DNA of 64,000 nt from an uncultured bacterium. Its GTDB lineage: Bacteria > CSSED10-310 > CAZUFC01. The position numbers and the translations under genes were made by a program. Location of the stretch: contig CAZUFC010000026.1 of assembly GCA_964619725.1 (NCBI GenBank), forward strand, positions 1 to 64,000, given 5' to 3'. Shown in pieces: positions 28,101 to 36,784 of the stretch. The notes under the pieces are model-generated. The model was given only the letters and a program-made list of their open reading frames with translations. It made no database searches and was not told the DNA's origin. The stretch's first letter is position 1. The number at the start of each line of letters is the position of its first letter.

Positions 28101-31100
28101 GTGACTTCATTTTCCAGGATAAACGATAACGAATCGCCCAAACGTATGCTGAACATATTCATATCATCCACGGCAGAAGACCTGGAGACTCACAGAACCA
28201 GGCTGATCAACGCAGTCCAGCGTTCCGGTCACCATCCCTCGTATATGGAAACATTCGGCGCAAGACCCGATCAGCCGGTAGAAGGATGCCGGAAATTAAT
28301 AAAAAAGTCTGACGCCGTAATAGTCATCGTCGCCTATCGTTACGGTTACGTGCCGGACAGAGACGAAGGCGGCGACGACAAACATTCCATGACCTGGCTG
28401 GAGGTCAAAGCGGCTGAGGAATTCAACAAGCCGGTATTCGCTTTTCTGGTCGATGAAAAAGCGCCCTGGACGAAAATGCGGGAAGAAAATTTGTTGAATG
28501 AGGTCCTGGAAGATGTTGAAGCATCACAACGAATTCTGAGTAACATGCGATCACTAAGGGAATTCAAAAAATATTTAGAAAAAAAATGCATGCGCGATAA
28601 ATTCCGATCAGAAGACGACTTGGCCGAAAAAGCGATTTCAAGCCTGTCCCGATGGATTAATGAAGAATTCGGACTTCGGACGAGCATCCCCGCAAGCGAC
28701 GCCGTATCCGAAACGGAAATCCTGGAAGGTTATCTGAACAAACTCCTCCCGGAAACAAGATGGATCGATATAAGAGGCATAAGCGCGGAGCGGGGATCAT
28801 CAAAGGACATGTGGCGTTTCCCCATTGAGGAACTTTTCACGCCGTTGAAAACCACAGGCTTCGCTAATAAAGCCGGCGGGTTCAAACCCGACATGGAAAA
28901 ACGCCGACCGGATGATATGCCGCTGAAAACGGAGGAACAGGACCAGCGACCGGAACTGTCGGATTTTCTGAAAGATAACCGCAAGCTGCTCCTGATAGGC
29001 GCGCCGGGAGGCGGAAAAACCACCTTCCTGCGCCTTATATCATGTGTGCTCGCAAAGGACCTCCTGGGAGAAAAGCATGGTTTCACTCAACCGGGCCGCT
29101 CGGTTCACCTGGGATTACACCTGACCGATGAACCGCCGGTCCCGGTCTTCATCAGGCTGGCTCTACTGGCATCTTACATGAATAAGGATGATGACGTCCC
29201 CTGCAACGATCACATATCCCGTATACTGAATCTTTTTCAAAAACTGTACGGCGAGCAAACCAGGGATATACTCGAAAAACGCCTGAACGAAGGGCGTTGC
29301 GCCCTTTTGCTAGATGGACTCGACGAAGTGGCCGACACCGACATGCGATGCCGAATCACAAATCTGGTGGATGAAATACTGCAGAAATGGGGAGAGAACC
29401 TGGTGATAGTCACTTCCAGACCGCACGGTTACAAGGAGGTCGAAGGATTAAAAGGCGTCGTAAAACTTGAAATAGACGAGTTTAACGAAAAGGACACGGC
29501 CGAATTCCTGAATAAGTGGGTCAACGTCATCTACTCTGAGCAGGATATGGAATCGCGGAACAGTTACCATCAGGAGCTGGAAGCGGCCATAGGATCATCC
29601 CGCAACATAAGAAGAATGGCCCGGAACCCCGTCATGCTGACCTGCCTGTGCGTGGTTCACTGGAACGAACGAAAGTTGCCGGAGGGCAAGGCTGACCTGA
29701 TGAGCGCGGTATTACGATGGCTGGTGGACGTCAGGAAAGAACAGAGGAAAAACGAAGGTTACACCAACACCTTTGCCGAAGAATGTTTCAAGTCGCTGGC
29801 CCTGGGCATGACGAATCATCCCGGAGGCAAAAAAAGCGTGGTCGACATAGCCTGGGCAGCCGAACAATTAGCCAAACCCTTCCATACCGAACAGGGAATT
29901 GACGACCTGGAAACCGTCCGAAGAAAAGGAAGTCATATCCTGGAATCAGAAATGATCTTCAGCGGCATTATAGAACGGGTCGGCCTGGGACAGTTAAGAT
30001 TCTGGCACCTGACTTTTCAGGAACATTACGCAGCCAGGCGCATTTCTGAACTGAGCGACCTGGACGATGAAACAGGATGGTGGCCTCTGATTAAACCTCA
30101 TATTTACGACCAGCAATGGTTCGAACTCCTGGACCATTTCGCGGGTTGCCTCTCCAGAAAAGGAAGGGAAAAACTCAACCTGCTCGTTGAAAGGTTTCTG
30201 AACGATTGCGATGACTCAGACCTGGCTTCAGTGGCTAAAACAGTCGGCATCCTGGGACGCCTGTTGCGAGTGCTCGAAGAATACGAATATACTCCGCCGC
30301 CGCAACTAGGCTGGGAAAAAGCACGCGAACGGGTCATGGAAATATTTAAAGTGGAAGGCGCAAAAAAAGTGAAAATCAAGCAAAGAATCACCGCAGCAGA
30401 AGCCCTGGGACAAAGCGGAGACCCCAGGTTAGAATTGCGTGAAAGGAAAAAGAATTTTAGACCGATTCCAGGACTCGAAAAGATAAAATTGGGAATATAT
30501 CCCGTCACCGTGGAAGAATACAAAGCCTTTGTCGAGGATGACGGTTACCGGAAACAGGATTTCTGGGGCGAATACTGGAGGATTCGTGAAAAAAATGAAT
30601 GGAATGCGCCCGATAATTGGGAGCGACAGTTGGACAAACCGAACCGTCCCGTCGTCTATGTGTCATGGTACGAAGCCAAAGCATACTGCCGCTGGCGATC
30701 CAAAACAGAACGCAGGGAGTATCGCCTGCCTGCGGAAAAAGAGTGGGAAGCGGCTGCCGTTAATCCTGACGGACCCTATCCATGGGGTAAAGAAGAACCG
30801 AATAATGAATTGGCGAATTATTATTTTGCGGGACCGAGAGAAACGACGCCTGTCGGTGTTTACCCGGCGGGCGCCACGCCTGAAGGTCACCTGGATATGG
30901 CGGGGAATGTCTGGGAATGGTGCGAAGATGACGTTACAAAAGAATACAAGGGCGATCGCCCTCTGCGGGCGCTGCGGGGCGGCTGCTTTTGGCTCGATGC
31001 TGTTTGCCTTCGCTCGACGGACCGTGACTGGCTCGAGGCTGATTACCGGAGCGACGACCTCGGCTTTCGGTTGGTCGTCGCCGCGAGCACGGTTGATGTT

Positions 31101-31103
31101 TGA
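28101..31103 (+). CDS. DGR target 1: DUF4062 - NACHT NTPase - FGE-sulfatase/C-type lectin fold protein
   Basis: IFISST..DL...ME.FGARP...RYG...SMTWLE (DUF4062); GAPGGGKTT, LLLDGLDEV, VTSR, NPVML, FWHLTFQEHYAA (NACHT); YPVT, PVVYVSWYEA, RLP.EKEWE, DMAGNVWEW, GFRLV (FGE). Alternative start ATG 28146. Confidence 0.92.
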   Translation: MTSFSRINDNESPKRMLNIFISSTAEDLETHRTRLINAVQRSGHHPSYMETFGARPDQPVEGCRKLIKKSDAVIVIVAYRYGYVPDRDEGGDDKHSMTWLEVKAAEEFNKPVFAFLVDEKAPWTKMREENLLNEVLEDVEASQRILSNMRSLREFKKYLEKKCMRDKFRSEDDLAEKAISSLSRWINEEFGLRTSIPASDAVSETEILEGYLNKLLPETRWIDIRGISAERGSSKDMWRFPIEELFTPLKTTGFANKAGGFKPDMEKRRPDDMPLKTEEQDQRPELSDFLKDNRKLLLIGAPGGGKTTFLRLISCVLAKDLLGEKHGFTQPGRSVHLGLHLTDEPPVPVFIRLALLASYMNKDDDVPCNDHISRILNLFQKLYGEQTRDILEKRLNEGRCALLLDGLDEVADTDMRCRITNLVDEILQKWGENLVIVTSRPHGYKEVEGLKGVVKLEIDEFNEKDTAEFLNKWVNVIYSEQDMESRNSYHQELEAAIGSSRNIRRMARNPVMLTCLCVVHWNERKLPEGKADLMSAVLRWLVDVRKEQRKNEGYTNTFAEECFKSLALGMTNHPGGKKSVVDIAWAAEQLAKPFHTEQGIDDLETVRRKGSHILESEMIFSGIIERVGLGQLRFWHLTFQEHYAARRISELSDLDDETGWWPLIKPHIYDQQWFELLDHFAGCLSRKGREKLNLLVERFLNDCDDSDLASVAKTVGILGRLLRVLEEYEYTPPPQLGWEKARERVMEIFKVEGAKKVKIKQRITAAEALGQSGDPRLELRERKKNFRPIPGLEKIKLGIYPVTVEEYKAFVEDDGYRKQDFWGEYWRIREKNEWNAPDNWERQLDKPNRPVVYVSWYEAKAYCRWRSKTERREYRLPAEKEWEAAAVNPDGPYPWGKEEPNNELANYYFAGPRETTPVGVYPAGATPEGHLDMAGNVWEWCEDDVTKEYKGDRPLRALRGGCFWLDAVCLRSTDRDWLEADYRSDDLGFRLVVAASTVDV
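30955..31091 (+). repeat. DGR variable repeat VR1
   Basis: 137-bp ungapped match to TR; 18 mismatches, all opposite TR adenines. Confidence 0.97.
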
Positions 31104-31135: not shown

Positions 31136-31154
31136 CCAGGGGCGGAGCCCCTGG
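31136..31154 (+). promoter_or_regulatory. DGR target-recognition hairpin/cruciform downstream of VR1
   Basis: CCAGGGGC-GGA-GCCCCTGG, 32 nt after stop. Confidence 0.85.
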
Positions 31155-31242
31155 CGAACGCAAAAACGTAATTATGTCATTTTGTAAACCCCGCCATGCA
31201 ACCAAAACGACAAAATGACAAACAAAATGACAAGCGTGACAA

Positions 31243-32250
31243 TCATTGACGGATTGCCGCAAAACCGGTCAAACCGCGATAAGAAGACAACGAACGGTAA
31301 AAATCCTCCGGTCTTCCATGTCCGGCCAGATACCGGAGCCTTCTCCTCATCCTCACCAGCATTCGCCTGGATGGTCTTATGCCGGAACGTGAAACATGAT
31401 ATCCCAGATAAATGAAAGCGCCCGACGTCCGCCTGGGTTGAACAGAGGGATTCTTTATCCGCAGTCGCCTATTTTTCATCAACCAGTCTACGGCTGCTTC
31501 CTTCGCCTCGGCCAGGCGCCGGCGGGAATCGGAAAAAAGAGCTGTATCGTCCATGTAACGTTGAACGTGAGGTATTTTCAGCTCCCGTTTAAGGAAGTGG
31601 TCGAAGCCCGACAGGTAATGATTTCCCCACCATTGACTGGTTAAGTTGCCTATCGGCAATCCGCAATCGTAAGGCGGATACCCTGGCGGCAAATTCAGCT
31701 TTTCGGAAACGTCGCGCCTTCTGTAAATCCCACGCCCGCTGTCAGCGATTAATCTCAGCAACCATAAAAAATCATCGTCTTTTATTTTTTTCCTCATTAT
31801 CTGCATCAATATGTTAATATCAATGCTCAGAAAATAATGAGCGATATCCATCAAAAGAGCAAAACGATATCGCCTGACAGCGCCGAGAAAACGAATCACG
31901 GCCCTGTGCGATCCTCTGCCCGGAAGGCATGCGTAAGTTGTATCGATCAATCCCCTGTCCATGAACGGTGCGATAACTCTGTGAACTGCATGATGAACGA
32001 TTCTGTCACGTACCGAAGCGGCAGAAATCAGTCTTATCTTAGGGTCATTAATGAAAAACAGATGGTATCCTCCGTGACTATAATTTTTCTGCTCCAAATC
32101 ACGACTCAATTTAATAATTTCTCGATCCGCTTCGGCCTCGAATCGTCTGACCGAGGGCCGGTTCCGTTTCCCGCGACGAAATTGCCGCCAGGCACGCCAA
32201 AGATTCCTTATTTCTGCCGTTTTATGAAAGAGGTCGCCGGCTCTTTTCAT
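31243..32250 (-). CDS. DGR reverse transcriptase
   Basis: DPKIRLISAASVRDRIVHHA, YACLPGRGSH, MDIAHYF.SI, GLPIGNLTSQW (DGR-type SQ), RYMDD, FIYLGY; 335 aa with no maturase or endonuclease domain. Confidence 0.95.
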   Translation of the reverse strand: MKRAGDLFHKTAEIRNLWRAWRQFRRGKRNRPSVRRFEAEADREIIKLSRDLEQKNYSHGGYHLFFINDPKIRLISAASVRDRIVHHAVHRVIAPFMDRGLIDTTYACLPGRGSHRAVIRFLGAVRRYRFALLMDIAHYFLSIDINILMQIMRKKIKDDDFLWLLRLIADSGRGIYRRRDVSEKLNLPPGYPPYDCGLPIGNLTSQWWGNHYLSGFDHFLKRELKIPHVQRYMDDTALFSDSRRRLAEAKEAAVDWLMKNRRLRIKNPSVQPRRTSGAFIYLGYHVSRSGIRPSRRMLVRMRRRLRYLAGHGRPEDFYRSLSSYRGLTGFAAIRQ

Positions 32251-32437: not shown

Positions 32438-32574
32438 CGTGTTCGCGGCGACGACCAACCGAAAGCCGATGTTGTCGTTCCGGTTATCAGCCTCGTTCCT
32501 GTTACGGTTCGTTGAGCGAAGGTTATCAGCATCGTTCCAATAGCTGCCGCCCCGCAGCGCCCGCAGAGGGCGAT
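32438..32574 (-). ncRNA. DGR template repeat TR (part of DGR RNA)
   Basis: between avd and RT; 31 adenines, 9 AAC codons in target frame; matches both VRs. Confidence 0.95.
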
Positions 32575-32601: not shown

Positions 32602-32934
32602 TTATATCTCTTTCTGCTTTTTCAACCAACCGCCGATTTGCCGTCCTATAAGGTCCGCCTGCTGCGAAAATTCCAGGTAACTCATCTCTGTAAGTAACCC
32701 AAGCTCGAATCCCAACGCCATATATGCCCTGAGCAGACGCAGATCGCAGTCGGCATCGGTCAGGCTCTCGAACCTGTTGCGGCCTTGTATCGCAAGCGTT
32801 ATATCGTCAAGAAGATGAAAGCTTGCATTTATCAGTCTATTTTTCAATAAAGTGTAGCGCGGCAATGATTCCAGTTCCTCAAGAAGTACTCCGCATAAGG
32901 CCATAACATCTCTGTACAAAGGCGATTCTTTCAT
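32602..32934 (-). CDS. avd: accessory variability determinant Avd (four-helix bundle)
   Basis: 110 aa helical protein, LPRY, LRLLRAYM, C-terminal IGRQIGGWLKK; immediately upstream of TR. Confidence 0.85.
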   Translation of the reverse strand: MKESPLYRDVMALCGVLLEELESLPRYTLLKNRLINASFHLLDDITLAIQGRNRFESLTDADCDLRLLRAYMALGFELGLLTEMSYLEFSQQADLIGRQIGGWLKKQKEI

Positions 32935-32938
32935 CAGA

Positions 32939-33565
32939 CTAATAACCCGTCGGATCGCGGCGGCTGCCGAATCCTTGAAAACGCTTCCTGTACGATCTCT
33001 TTTCAGTACTCCTCACCAGCGATGATAAAAAAGGGATGTAATCCTGCTCTATCCTGTCCGCAAATTCAATACGCATCGATTCATCCGCTCCGTTTTTTAT
33101 CAGAAGTTGAATGACCGCAGAGGCCGCCGCTTTCCGGGCTTCATTATAATGCAGCGACTTGTTGTTCGGTTGATACTCGTGACACCCCCGGCAAAGCGCC
33201 GTTAGAGAATCCTCAAGAAGACGGCTCGCCGGATGCTCCTCTCCCAGACGCAAACTGGTCTCTTTGTATATGATTATCCCCGACTTGTAAGCCCGCAGAT
33301 CACGAACTGAATAATACCTGCCCTTTTTCACTTTGCCCACGGAACGGCCCACAGGGGAAATCGCCTCATCCGCCGCATCCTGCAGATTCTTCAGTCGCAT
33401 GGCCGCCGCTGTCCTCTGCGCATTACTCAAAGGCAGAACTTCAGAATCGATGACCCAGCGGCCGCCCTTTTTTCGTGCCGGCAATTCATTCTTCTTAATG
33501 GCGTAACGCAACTGCCTCACGCTTTTACCCAATAAGTCAGCAGCCTCTGATAAGGACAGTTCCAT
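32939..33565 (-). CDS. helix-turn-helix (excisionase/HTH_17-like) protein fused to a four-helix-bundle-like domain; likely start ATG 33565
   Basis: LSLSEAADLLGKSVRQLRYAIKKNELPARKKGGRWVI; C-terminal SVRDLRAY...LCRG...HYNEARKAAASAVIQL; AAGGGGAA RBS. Confidence 0.75.
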   Translation of the reverse strand: MELSLSEAADLLGKSVRQLRYAIKKNELPARKKGGRWVIDSEVLPLSNAQRTAAAMRLKNLQDAADEAISPVGRSVGKVKKGRYYSVRDLRAYKSGIIIYKETSLRLGEEHPASRLLEDSLTALCRGCHEYQPNNKSLHYNEARKAAASAVIQLLIKNGADESMRIEFADRIEQDYIPFLSSLVRSTEKRSYRKRFQGFGSRRDPTGY

Positions 33566-33706
33566 AAGTTCCCCTTTTGTCAAGATTGTTTCAATATCGG
33601 CAGTTTGTCAATGCTGTCTTTAACAAAACTGCTGTAATTCTTACATATTGTCAGTAATTTGTCAAGTTTAAACGGTGAAAATGACGAAATTTCGAATTTG
33701 TCGCGG

Positions 33707-33725
33707 CCAGGGGCTTCGCCCCTGG
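33707..33725 (-). promoter_or_regulatory. DGR target-recognition hairpin/cruciform downstream of VR2
   Basis: CCAGGGGC-GAA-GCCCCTGG on the minus strand, 32 nt after stop. Confidence 0.85.
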
Positions 33726-33757: not shown

Positions 33758-36700
33758 TCAAACATCAACCGTGCTCGCGGCGACGACCAACCGAAAGCCG
33801 ACGAGGTCGTCCCGGGGACCAGCCTCGCTCCAGAGACGGTGCGGAGAGCGAAGGTTACCAGCAACGTCCCAATAGCCGCCGCCCCGCAGCGCCCGCAGAG
33901 GGCGATTTGAACTCCCCCCATATTCTTCAGTAACATCATCTTCGCACCATTCCCAGACATTTCCCGCCATATCCAGATGACCGGCCGGCGCAGCCCCTTT
34001 CGGATAAATTCCCACTGGTGTGGGGCTGTCCACGTTACTGTAAAAATTCGCCAACTCAGCATCAGGCTCATCTTTCCCCCAGGGATACGGACCGTTCGAG
34101 TTCCGCGCCGCATCTTCCCATTCTTCCTCGTAGGGCAGCCGATAATTCCGTTTCCGCTCCAGTTTAGAACGCCATCGGCAATAGGCCACGGCTTCGTACC
34201 AGGAAACTTCAACCACGGGTCTATTGGGCGTTTCCAACTGGTCCTCCCAACTGTCGGGTTTAGTCCAGTCGTTATCTTCACGAATTTTCCAGTATTCGCC
34301 CCAGAATTCCTCTTTGGAATAACCGCCGTCATCGACGAAGTCTTTAAACTCTTCGACGGTTACGGGATAAATACCGAGCATAAGATGTTCGCGTCCTGGT
34401 ACAAGCTCGAAGTTATTAACCCGCTTTTCCGGCGTCAGGCGAGGGTCTCCGCCCTGTCCCAGTCCTTCGGCCGCGGTAATTCTATCTTTGATTTTGACCT
34501 TTTCTGCGCCTTCAACAGTAAATATTTCCATAACCCTGTCGCGAGCCACTGTCCATCCGATCTGCGGCGGAGGCGTGTATCTGTAGACCTCCAGCACTCG
34601 AAGCAATCTTCCCAGGACGCCGACTGCCCTGGCCGTTCCCGCCAGTCCTTCTTGTTCGCCCTGTTCCAGAATACGTTTAACCAGTTTAGTCAGTCCATCC
34701 CTCCTTGTTTTTGCCAGGCACCCGGCGAAATGGTCCAGCACTTCGGCCCAGTTGCGATCATGCACATGAGGCGATATGATCCGCCACCACCCTTTTTCAT
34801 CATCTTCATCCCTGCATTGAGCCAGCATGACGGCAGCATAGTGTTCCTGAAACGTCAGGTGCTTGAACCGGACCTGTCCTTCATTGACTCTTTCCACTAT
34901 GCCGCTGTCCATCATTTCACATTCTAAAAATCGAGTTCCTTTATCGTTCAATTCCCTATGGTCCGTAATGCCGAATTCGTTGTAAAACGGTCCTTTCAGA
35001 AATTCAGCCGCTTCCGAAAGATCGGCGACGGCCTTTTTACCGGCTTTATGAGTCGTCATTTCAAATGCCAAGGTCTTGAAACACTGTTCAGCGAATTCAT
35101 TGCCGTAACCCCTGGATTCACGGACATGCTTGTGGGAATTCAACAACCACTTGAGCACAGCGGCCAAAAGATCGGCTTTACCTTCCGGCAGTTTTCTTTC
35201 ATTCCAGTGAACCACGCAGAGGCATGTGAGCATGACCGGGTTTTTCGCCAGTCTTCTTATCGTCGGCGATGAGATGATCGCTTCATTCAGCTCGAACCTG
35301 AGCTTACGGCATTCCCTTTGATCTTCGGGAAAAACCGCTGCCGCCCAGCGATCGATAAATTCGATTATTTCATCTTCGCCGAAATCGGAGATATGAGTGG
35401 TATTCATGGTTTCCAGTTCGGAGACTCCTTCGTATCCGAATGGACGTGAAGTGATGACGATCAGGCTCTTTTTCCATTTTTTGACGGAAGCTTCCACGAT
35501 ATTGATTACCTGCTCCCGTCTTTCCAGTTCAGGGACCTCATCCAGTCCGTCGAATAAAAGAGCGGCCCGTCCTTTGATCAAACGATTTTCGATAATATTA
35601 CGCATGGGTTTCCCATGGATGGATTCCAGGTATTCAAAAAGGCAGCGAACAGGGTTGACGTCTCTTCCCTGGTCATTTCTGGAAATATGCTGGGAAAGCG
35701 CGGCCAGGGTAACGAATACAGGCAGCGGAGCGACTTTCGCCAGGTCAAGCCCCAGGTGGATATGCCGTTCCTTCGCTGTTTCATTTTTCATTTCCGTAAG
35801 CATATCTTCCGCGGTAACGCATGCGATGAACCGTAAAAACGTGGTTTTACCGCCGCCGGGAGCCCCTACCAGCATCAGTTTGCTGCAATCCTTCAGCAAA
35901 TCTGAAAGTTTGACGTCGCGTTCTCTTTCCATACCGGCATGCTGCAATTCATCGTCACCGCCGGCGCTGCGTGATCGTCCTCTCCTGACCGCGCACTCCG
36001 GTCCCGCCGTTTTTAAAGGCGTAAACAGTTTTTTGATGGAAAAATGGCTGGCGGCATATCCTTCGCCCGCTCGCGAACCGATCCCCTGTATCTTGATGCG
36101 GGAAAATTGTGATACGACCGACTCCAGGTATTCCCTCAGCGCCTTCCTTTCAGAAACATGGTGCAGTTCTATATCCGGTCCGGGAACCGGTGGCGTTCGA
36201 TCGCCCGGTCTGAGAACGTCGATTCTCTCTCGCAGATGGTTTGAAAGCGCTGTTACCACTTTTTTCGCCAGGTTATCCGGGTTCAGGAATGTCGTTAAAG
36301 TATGTTTGTCGTTAAGGTGTTTTTTGAAGTTTTTGAGTTCCTGTATCGCCTTGTAAATATCCTGAATTTCGTGAGGTTTCGCCTCTTCCATACGGTCCTG
36401 TTCTTTCGGAAGAAAACGCTTAAGAGAATCGTCCGCAATATAAGCGAACACCGGAATGCCTTTTTTCTCAGCCGCTTCAACCTCGAACCAGGTAATGGAC
36501 TTTGCTCCGTTCCCGCCTTTTTCCGCCGTAGGGACCCATCCATAACGCCATCCGACGATAACGACCAGCGCATCAGCGCTATCTGCCATGCCCAAAGATT
36601 CGTTCAAAGGTGTATCGGGACGCGCTCCGAAGCTTTCCATCCCGACTGATTGAATGTGAAGATCGTCGACAGCTTCCCGGACTGCATTGCGATAAGGCTT

Positions 36701-36784
36701 CAGGTCTTCATAAGTAGAGGATATAAAAACGCGAAAAGCCCTGTGCCTGTCAAACGTGTTATCAGGATAACCATTTCGGTTCAT
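33758..36784 (-). CDS. DGR target 2: DUF4062 - NACHT NTPase - FGE-sulfatase/C-type lectin fold protein
   Basis: VFISSTYEDL..MESFGARP..RYG..SITWFE; GAPGGGKTT, LLFDGLDEV, ITSR; DMAGNVWEW..GFRLVVAASTVDV; paralogue of 28101..31103. Confidence 0.92.
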   Translation of the reverse strand: MNRNGYPDNTFDRHRAFRVFISSTYEDLKPYRNAVREAVDDLHIQSVGMESFGARPDTPLNESLGMADSADALVVIVGWRYGWVPTAEKGGNGAKSITWFEVEAAEKKGIPVFAYIADDSLKRFLPKEQDRMEEAKPHEIQDIYKAIQELKNFKKHLNDKHTLTTFLNPDNLAKKVVTALSNHLRERIDVLRPGDRTPPVPGPDIELHHVSERKALREYLESVVSQFSRIKIQGIGSRAGEGYAASHFSIKKLFTPLKTAGPECAVRRGRSRSAGGDDELQHAGMERERDVKLSDLLKDCSKLMLVGAPGGGKTTFLRFIACVTAEDMLTEMKNETAKERHIHLGLDLAKVAPLPVFVTLAALSQHISRNDQGRDVNPVRCLFEYLESIHGKPMRNIIENRLIKGRAALLFDGLDEVPELERREQVINIVEASVKKWKKSLIVITSRPFGYEGVSELETMNTTHISDFGEDEIIEFIDRWAAAVFPEDQRECRKLRFELNEAIISSPTIRRLAKNPVMLTCLCVVHWNERKLPEGKADLLAAVLKWLLNSHKHVRESRGYGNEFAEQCFKTLAFEMTTHKAGKKAVADLSEAAEFLKGPFYNEFGITDHRELNDKGTRFLECEMMDSGIVERVNEGQVRFKHLTFQEHYAAVMLAQCRDEDDEKGWWRIISPHVHDRNWAEVLDHFAGCLAKTRRDGLTKLVKRILEQGEQEGLAGTARAVGVLGRLLRVLEVYRYTPPPQIGWTVARDRVMEIFTVEGAEKVKIKDRITAAEGLGQGGDPRLTPEKRVNNFELVPGREHLMLGIYPVTVEEFKDFVDDGGYSKEEFWGEYWKIREDNDWTKPDSWEDQLETPNRPVVEVSWYEAVAYCRWRSKLERKRNYRLPYEEEWEDAARNSNGPYPWGKDEPDAELANFYSNVDSPTPVGIYPKGAAPAGHLDMAGNVWEWCEDDVTEEYGGSSNRPLRALRGGGYWDVAGNLRSPHRLWSEAGPRDDLVGFRLVVAASTVDV
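33770..33906 (-). repeat. DGR variable repeat VR2
   Basis: 137-bp ungapped match to TR; 19 mismatches, all opposite TR adenines. Confidence 0.97.

Follow-up and report, generated by a model that had tools for sequence, protein, structure and literature searches.

How the cDNA of a diversity-generating retroelement (DGR) finds and replaces the variable repeat (VR) is the least understood step of mutagenic retrohoming. Avd, a DGR accessory protein, is a homopentamer that binds the reverse transcriptase (RT). In published sources, cited here and below for the portions covered, the accessories given for DGRs are Avd, HRDC, MSL and CH1, together with four tenuous candidates (Wu et al. 2018, PMC5758913; MyDGR, PMC6602519; Yan et al. 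2019, PMC6642488; the González-Delgado review, PMC8632793). The cis requirements reported by Guo et al. 2011 are the IMH (initiation of mutagenic homing) element and a hairpin, and the abstract of that study names no protein factor for target recognition. Cassettes of the same kind as the one described here appear in Doré et al. 2024 (PMC10907252), where clade 5D has two STAND-lectin targets; the NACHT/STAND-lectin sensors diversified by such cassettes are putative antigen sensors, and the one helix-turn-helix (HTH) gene mentioned in the portion covered lies at a different locus type. Here we describe a gene, under the working name HTH-X, at 32939..33565 on the minus strand of a 64,000-nt stretch of DNA from an uncultured bacterium (contig CAZUFC010000026.1, positions 1 to 64,000; the whole stretch is called the window below). 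HTH-X sits in a complete DGR. It pairs an HTH with a C-terminal domain predicted to be a four-helix bundle, its homologues are linked to one DGR lineage, and it co-occurs with arrays of short, phased NGACA motifs that are anchored to a hairpin beside each VR.

The protein and its putative sites can each be set beside a described system. Like the Avd of BPP-1 (4dwl, 8ub7; PF22296), and like 2gsc and 2rld, HTH-X is predicted to contain a four-helix up-down bundle of ~110 residues, here again within a DGR cassette, 2gsc being the nearest of these structures. Unlike the BPP-1 Avd, to which it has no detectable sequence homology, it also has a winged HTH and a long linker helix, and it occurs besides a normal Avd, not instead of one. 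We take 2gsc and 2rld to be members of the IVP family, an assignment made from general knowledge and the title of the 2rld entry rather than from a sequence test.

The DNA-binding domain is of the same family as the winged helices of excisionases and recombination directionality factors (RDFs; HTH_17, with RdfS and lambda Xis as examples) and of the MerR-like BldC. As a rule, winged helices of the excisionase type cover several phased sites in oligomeric form and shape the DNA for recombination, and lambda Xis likewise binds several sites cooperatively as an oligomer. The winged-helix factor RdfS is described as binding, as an oligomer, both the recombination site attP and its own promoter, and BldC as binding direct repeats in cooperative multimers. 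Excisionases and RDFs are proteins of ~60–90 aa that partner tyrosine recombinases, whereas HTH-X has an extra 120-aa bundle and a reverse transcriptase cassette for a partner. The DNA beside the VRs resembles the BPP-1 target site (IMH plus a GC hairpin or cruciform, Guo et al. 2011) in having a GC-rich hairpin a few tens of nucleotides downstream of the VR (for hairpin criteria see MyDGR, PMC6602519). It differs from that site in the phased array that follows the hairpin and in a cassette that encodes a matching candidate binder.

An earlier reading made from the sequence alone (the sequence-only reading) had placed HTH-X outside the commonly listed accessories, in agreement with the covered portions of PMC5758913, PMC6602519 and PMC8632793. 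Those of PMC5758913, PMC6602519 and PMC6642488 yielded no mention of HTH or helix-turn-helix. In the full texts searched we found no description of the HTH-X family or of the arrays, the search leaving aside supplements, where the gene might be drawn or listed without comment; within that literature, and with that reservation, the two are an undescribed accessory protein and cis element of a known system, the DGR.

Linkage of HTH-X to One DGR Lineage

The HTH-X family is large. An exhaustive search gave 522 representative clusters at E ≤ 1e-3, 267 of them also at E ≤ 1e-10, against just four relatives recovered by a word-index homologue search, and most of the 150 clusters listed are full length (170–230 aa). 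Loci outside the window were found with one peptide pattern from the C-terminal domain and number 33, of which 12 come from species genomes and 21 from metagenomes. As labelled in their records, the genome loci belong to Holophagales, Myxococcales and a Planctomycetota bin, to several Gammaproteobacteria (Lamprocystis and Accumulibacter among them) and to others. For the metagenome scan a five-row alignment was used, a 113-row alignment having been rejected as too diverse. Profiles for RT, Avd, FGE and HTH-X, built from the window and loci L001-L012, were run on six-frame translations.

That homologues should adjoin DGRs, as the sequence-only reading supposed, is what we see: DGR parts flank HTH-X at all 33 outside loci, where the gene lies between the end of an FGE-type target and the DGR machinery. 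The avd gene, whole or as a fragment, follows HTH-X directly in 24 of the 33 (9 of the 12 genome loci and 15 of the 21 metagenome loci). Of the 33, 31 hold an RT or part of one, and the remaining two contigs end before the RT position. A Pfam scan of 90 open reading frames (ORFs) from the 12 genome loci found bAvd in seven (E ≤ 1e-4), RVT_1 in eight and FGE-sulfatase targets in all 12. The HTH-X stop overlaps the avd start by 4 nt in L002, L003, L006 and L007, and in nine deletion remnants (L001, L010, L012, L024, L025, L028, L034, L035 and L036) HTH-X abuts a piece of RT. HTH-X is strictly linked to one DGR lineage, whose order is target, HTH-X, avd, template repeat (TR), RT and inverted target. 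Conserved within many distinct DGRs, it is an accessory in the operational sense of Wu et al. 2018. Among viral contigs, none of the 35 pattern matches encodes an HTH-X relative. A search of 60 relatives of the window's genome found no close RT in any of them.

Some of these loci are rearranged. In the nine deletion remnants and in L008 the TR is missing, and HTH-X, whole or truncated, is directly joined to a fragment of RT or Avd; in L024, L025 and L028 a full-length HTH-X stands beside an RT that lacks its first 22–32 residues. In L005 (L005:6900-11500) the RT is split in two and lies ~3.4 kb from avd and the TR, and an ORF in between has a weak match to a transposase-associated domain.

Motif Arrays beside the Variable Repeats

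Downstream of each target stop codon the DNA follows one plan, in which a T/G-rich stretch, a GC hairpin with a 3-nt loop and an A/T run precede 4–11 copies of TGACA or TGTCA. In the window, the hairpin downstream of VR1 (33707..33725, minus strand; 8-bp stem, 3-nt loop) has a predicted DNA folding energy of -12.2 kcal/mol (z -3.09). Between it and the HTH-X start codon a motif scan places array 1 (33577..33703, minus strand), which consists of CGACAA at 33698, TGACAA at 33659, 33648, 33605 and 33577, and AGACAG at 33614; three of the five TTGACAA of the 64-kb window fall within it. The hairpin downstream of VR2 (31136..31154, plus strand; -11.1 kcal/mol, z -3.16) is followed in the same scan by array 2 (31174..31242, plus strand), with TGACAT at 31174 (on the minus strand), CGACAA at 31208 and TGACAA at 31216, 31228 and 31237. 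Array 2 lies in the spacer between the stop of target 2 and that of the RT (31243). Because these two genes converge there, the array serves no gene start and no promoter is needed at this place. The two flanks of the cassette share a 229-nt inverted repeat, and both arrays lie outside it. By consensus matching, array 1 also holds a sigma-70-like promoter (33637..33665, minus strand; TTGACA, a 17-nt spacer and a TG-extended AAGAAT, 10 of 12 positions), the -35 box of which is the first TGACAA motif of the array.

Motifs were counted over 20 VR1 flanks and 17 VR2 flanks. TGACA or TGTCA occurs 86 times in the 3,667 nt of the VR1 flanks and 82 times in the 3,686 nt of the VR2 flanks, compared with 191 times in the other 201,495 nt, an enrichment of ~24-fold over the rest of the same loci. 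Among 60 pentamers of the same composition TGACA ranks first in the flanks (168 occurrences versus a median of five). Neighbouring motifs are spaced 10–12 nt apart in 77 of 132 cases, their orientation alternates in 89 of 132, and the base after the motif is A in 65%. A perfect-stem GC hairpin was picked in 25 of the 37 flanks, one of the picks (L018 VR1) lying inside the array. The distance from hairpin to first motif has a median of 12.5 nt (interquartile range [IQR] 10–16, n = 24 flanks), and that from the last motif to the HTH-X start a median of 39 nt (IQR 11–53, range 9–95 nt, n = 14). The arrays are anchored to the hairpin, not to the HTH-X start codon. A correspondence of five array motifs to a pentamer was considered and given up, as the VR2 arrays have 4–11 motifs.

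The arrays were also compared with other DGRs. In five other genomes HTH-X is present at 11 of 21 RT loci. Nine DGR loci of other cassette order in these genomes have no HTH-X and no arrays (at most one TGACA per 120 nt), and one degenerate RT fragment retains arrays without HTH-X. The window's own genome contains two HRDC-type DGRs, on contigs C280 (L041:1838-2335) and C226 (L042:1949-2464), which run target, HRDC, avd, RT, TR; here an HRDC protein (Pfam ~1e-17) fills the HTH-X slot between target and avd. HRDC accessories (Wu et al. 2018) and HTH-X thus share a slot, and both are small proteins with nucleic-acid-binding folds, but the folds are unrelated, and in the HRDC-type cassettes examined neither target-HRDC spacer contains TGACA, while long hairpins follow the VR. 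FGE paralogues not matched by the TR (in L002 and L018) have neither hairpin nor array.

Domain Architecture and Relation to Avd

The minus-strand ORF spans 32939..33583 and encodes 214 aa from a TTG start or 208 aa from an ATG at 33565. We take 32939-33565 as the likely gene because homologues align from the ATG methionine and a GGGG lies ~7 nt upstream. Its stop codon (32939-32941) ends the gene 4 nt before the avd start (32934) on the same strand, as the sequence-only reading had it. A model built with AlphaFold2 from a 113-sequence alignment (mean pLDDT 91.9) predicts that residues 1-42 form a winged HTH and 48-75 a long helix, after which come a variable linker and four helices at 91-107, 112-128, 133-156 and 162-200. 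Many family members carry, after the bundle, a basic C-terminal tail with a recurring R-F-x-R-F/Y-G (residues 190-205; window 32951-32998).

The N-terminal domain (codons 1-42; 33440..33565, minus strand) is modelled as strand-helix-helix-wing. Residues 3-42 match Pfam HTH_17 (PF12728) at 9.2e-10, with 39.1 bits against a cut-off of 27, and all 113 family members match the same family. Of the HTH_17/MerR-like winged helix proposed from the sequence, the HTH_17 assignment stands; for the MerR models PF00376 (17.4 bits versus 28.2) and PF13411 (13.1 versus 21.6) the scores fall under the Pfam cut-offs, as does that of a Fis-type HTH. PHROGs matches are to RDF and excisionase families (from 5.9e-06, for an RDF, to 4.4e-03), and the NCBIfam model TIGR01764 'excise' matches below its threshold (3.2e-04, 21 bits versus 28.8). 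PADLOC returned a match of the HTH to mad1 and nothing else, and a PDB sequence-profile search matched the HTH alone (4j2n, Gp37, 5.5e-4). Both the recognition helix (GKSxRQ[VIL]RY) and the GACA core of the motifs scarcely vary, residue 16 being the one variable position of the helix. Flanks of loci with V, R, T or Y there contain 134 TGACA and 21 CGACA, compared with 34 and 41 for those with E or P. These loci are kin and the counts carry no statistical test, and they give a hint that residue 16 may loosely track the first base of the motif.

The C-terminal domain (codons 85-200; 32966..33313, minus strand) matches no Pfam family and is predicted with high confidence to form a bundle of four helices (91-200) with an Avd/IVP-like fold. 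Within the family E173 is invariant, and H129, K136, A143, R144 and L183 are kept in at least 95% of members. When the model was compared, without Foldseek, with 48,161 representative solved chains, the best match was 2gsc_A (Z 14.3, root-mean-square deviation 1.9 over 101 residues), followed by a pectin methylesterase inhibitor (Z 12.3), 2rld_A (Z 12.2), a second such inhibitor (Z 12.1) and, in fifth place, 8ub7_B, the Avd chain of the DGR ribonucleoprotein (Z 11.4). Helical bundles can score Z ~13–14 in this tool from shape alone, and among these matches only 2gsc stands above unrelated bundles. Foldseek likewise put 2gsc first (E 0.03), with bAvd 4dwl at E 0.5. As a control, a model of the window's true Avd (pLDDT 94.0) gave 2gsc (Z 18.1), 4dwl (15.9), 8ub7_B (15.8) and 2rld (15.7) as its top four, and then the same pectin methylesterase inhibitor (13.1). 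2gsc is the nearest solved fold common to the HTH-X bundle and this Avd.

Sequence comparison gives no such link. BLASTP of HTH-X against the neighbouring Avd found nothing significant, the best E value (0.14) falling within the HTH region, and hhalign against sets of 8 and of 22 Avds returned a probability of 0.3%. Neither PF22296 (Avd) nor PF05635 (23S_rRNA_IVP) matches HTH-X in Pfam at E ≤ 0.1, and both are missing from the 25 Pfam families that the 113 members match most frequently. A protein-language search with residues 80-208 placed 23S_rRNA_IVP and bAvd clusters nearest among named ones at 0.78, a lead only, as it lies under the tool's 0.9 line. The C-terminal half had been described from the sequence as Avd/IVP-like: the fold agrees, a four-helix bundle with 2gsc as best match being predicted, but the likeness in sequence motifs finds no support in BLASTP, hhalign or Pfam. 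The bundle appears to have an Avd-like fold, with homology unproven.

The two proteins also differ in charge. HTH-X is basic (median isoelectric point [pI] 9.9, C-terminal domain 8.7; n = 113), whereas the Avds next to it are acidic to neutral (median pI 6.2; 18 of 22 under 7.5). The HRDC-type Avds of the window's genome have pI values of 9.7 and 9.8, and Avds in general have a mean pI of 9.5 (Wu et al. 2018, PMC5758913). A basic HTH-X beside an acidic Avd would fit a division of labour in which HTH-X supplies the nucleic-acid binding.

The Cassette in the Window and Its Genome

The cassette is bounded by two targets. Target gene 1 (33758..36784, minus strand; 1008 aa) combines DUF4062 (Pfam 4.4e-18), NACHT (1.9e-07) and an FGE-sulfatase domain of C-type-lectin fold (2e-39), and carries VR1 at its 3' end (33770..33906, minus strand), which is 86% identical to the TR and differs from it at TR adenines. 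Beyond HTH-X on the same strand come avd (32602..32934; 110 aa; PF22296 4.5e-12, with a match to NF033474 at 1.8e-12 yet under its cut-off), the TR found by repeat comparison (32438..32574; 137 nt) and the RT (31243..32250; 335 aa; RVT_1 5.5e-11). Target gene 2 (28101..31103, plus strand; 1000 aa; DUF4062, NACHT and FGE-sulfatase by Pfam) is inverted relative to the cassette. Its 3' end holds VR2 (30955..31091, plus strand), which is inverted and 87% identical to the TR, the differences again lying at TR adenines. We found no remote VR for this TR in the assembly. Public contigs of the probable source sample break at both VRs (31074-31089 and 33772-33801), and those of three other samples from the same study show no differences over the parts they cover.

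The 9.2-Mb genome has a second complete HTH-X copy on contig 9, plus a truncated copy and a fragment. A degenerate locus on contig C155 (L043:2090-2650) has a target and, after it, a truncated HTH-X (the HTH and ~60 residues), but neither avd nor RT; the spacer upstream of this HTH-X has GGACA and CGGA-type repeats, not TGACA, and in its recognition helix H replaces Q18. More than 20 further FGE-sulfatase-type domains are encoded in the genome, mostly with no DGR part nearby (for example on C153, C161 and C179). Several RT or Avd fragments (C8, C29, C207) show that it contains many DGR-related remnants.

Candidate Roles of HTH-X

The reading we favour, which we rate at about even, makes HTH-X a dedicated, sequence-specific, architectural DNA-binding accessory that belongs to one DGR lineage and would mark both its own promoter and the target sites at the VRs. 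Its excisionase-type winged helix would read NGACA half-sites about one helical turn apart, beginning ~12 nt past the GC hairpin after each VR, and the Avd-like bundle would link the DNA-bound copies, either with one another or with the acidic Avd-RT particle. The nucleoprotein structure so formed beside each VR, comparable to those that excisionases and RDFs build at att sites, would mark or shape the integration site of the mutagenised cDNA. In this account HTH-X would bind the arrays, oligomerise or make contact with Avd, and take part in retrohoming. The promoter-like site, whose -35 box is the first TGACAA motif of array 1, is covered by this array, so HTH-X bound there would also modulate expression of HTH-X, avd, TR and RT; autoregulation is plausible too. 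The tethering of the RT-Avd-RNA complex to target DNA that the sequence-only reading suggested gains indirect support from the arrays next to both VR hairpins, and a regulatory role is just as possible. A dual role, in regulation and at the target site, is likely.

Regulation could also be the whole of it. A purely transcriptional HTH-X, or an insulator, would control the HTH-X-avd-TR-RT operon through array 1 and block target read-through at array 2. Dimerisation or the sensing of a signal, as in regulators of the MerR or CarH type, would then be the task of its bundle, and the protein would have no part in retrohoming chemistry. We regard this as possible but clearly less probable than the architectural reading. 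The coincidence of a motif with the -35 box of a 10/12 promoter match that has an extended -10 points this way, as does a likeness to MerR-type regulators in the layout of HTH, long helix and C-terminal domain; HiNmlR and CarH are among the weak Foldseek matches (E 0.1–0.5), and at E ≤ 1 the MerR HTH model is touched by 66 of the 113 members. Target-gene transcription would enter the cassette exactly at the places of the two arrays, and the conserved polar set H129, K136, R144 and E173 could be a ligand site. The distance that the arrays keep is nevertheless to the hairpin rather than to the start codon, their four to ten phased sites exceed the usual need of an operator, and the MerR scores are under the Pfam cut-offs.

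The bundle suggests another account, in which HTH-X is an Avd paralogue and a subunit of the RT-Avd-RNA particle, its bundle joining or capping the Avd pentamer, its main role in cDNA synthesis and its HTH secondary. This would be in keeping with the shared best neighbour 2gsc, the places of 2rld and bAvd among the top five matches, the nearest named protein-language clusters (IVP and bAvd, the sub-threshold lead given above), the overlap or 4-nt gap between HTH-X stop and avd start, and the pairing of a basic with an acidic protein. We nonetheless think it improbable, since BLASTP, hhalign and Pfam detect no homology, the matches other than 2gsc rank among generic four-helix bundles, and the arrays are left unexplained. 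Still further down, and very improbable indeed, is an HTH-X that serves as the excisionase or RDF of a mobile element which merely carries a DGR. The PHROG and TIGR01764 matches of the N-terminus would suit such a protein, but at all 33 loci the immediate neighbours are a DGR target and avd or RT, not a recombinase; the patterns used found no relative in viral contigs; and loci from several phyla, as labelled in their records, keep the same internal order.

Several observations weigh against the architectural reading itself. The exact pentamer is sparse at some of the loci with HTH-X, with counts in the VR1 and VR2 flanks of 1 and 4 (L003), 1 and 2 (L009), 1 and 2 (L012) and 2 and 1 (L032), and likewise in L017 (one) and L001 (none). 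Five of the 11 HTH-X loci in the five other genomes have at most three TGACA per 120 nt; TGACA-poor HTH-X loci use CGACA or GGACA variants, and the motif core was widened to NGACA after the data were seen. TTGACA is the sigma-70 -35 consensus, so plain autoregulation explains array 1, and array 2, instead of serving integration, could act as a roadblock to transcription. The window's TR has no remote VR in this genome that would show arrays accompanying VRs away from the cassette. Four DNA contig sets of one study showed no VR differences between samples, the covered parts being identical, a comparison that says nothing on expression or activity. As for the linkage, a locus search with a single pattern may miss divergent members in other contexts, and in L001-L012 the profile matches are partly built in; independent evidence comes from the 21 metagenome loci and from the Pfam scan of the genome loci.

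In a bolder form of the architectural reading, HTH-X would be the first DGR-encoded reader of target DNA, oligomerising by means of its Avd-like bundle on the phased array beside each VR hairpin and handing the RT-Avd-cDNA particle to the site. The target would then be set by a hairpin-plus-array code besides TR/VR homology, and the acidic Avd would have ceded its nucleic-acid binding. We put this forward tentatively, as distinctly less likely than the architectural reading in its plain form. If it is true, moving an array could retarget hypermutation.

Implications

For annotation, HTH-X would add a fifth recurrent accessory class to Avd, HRDC, MSL and CH1, and the motifs a simple DNA signature for the lineage. 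If HTH-X is merely a regulator, it would still be a dedicated switch for cellular DGR activity, the control of which is poorly known. As for how a DGR finds its target, the lineage with HTH-X offers a candidate DNA reader together with candidate sites beside both VRs.

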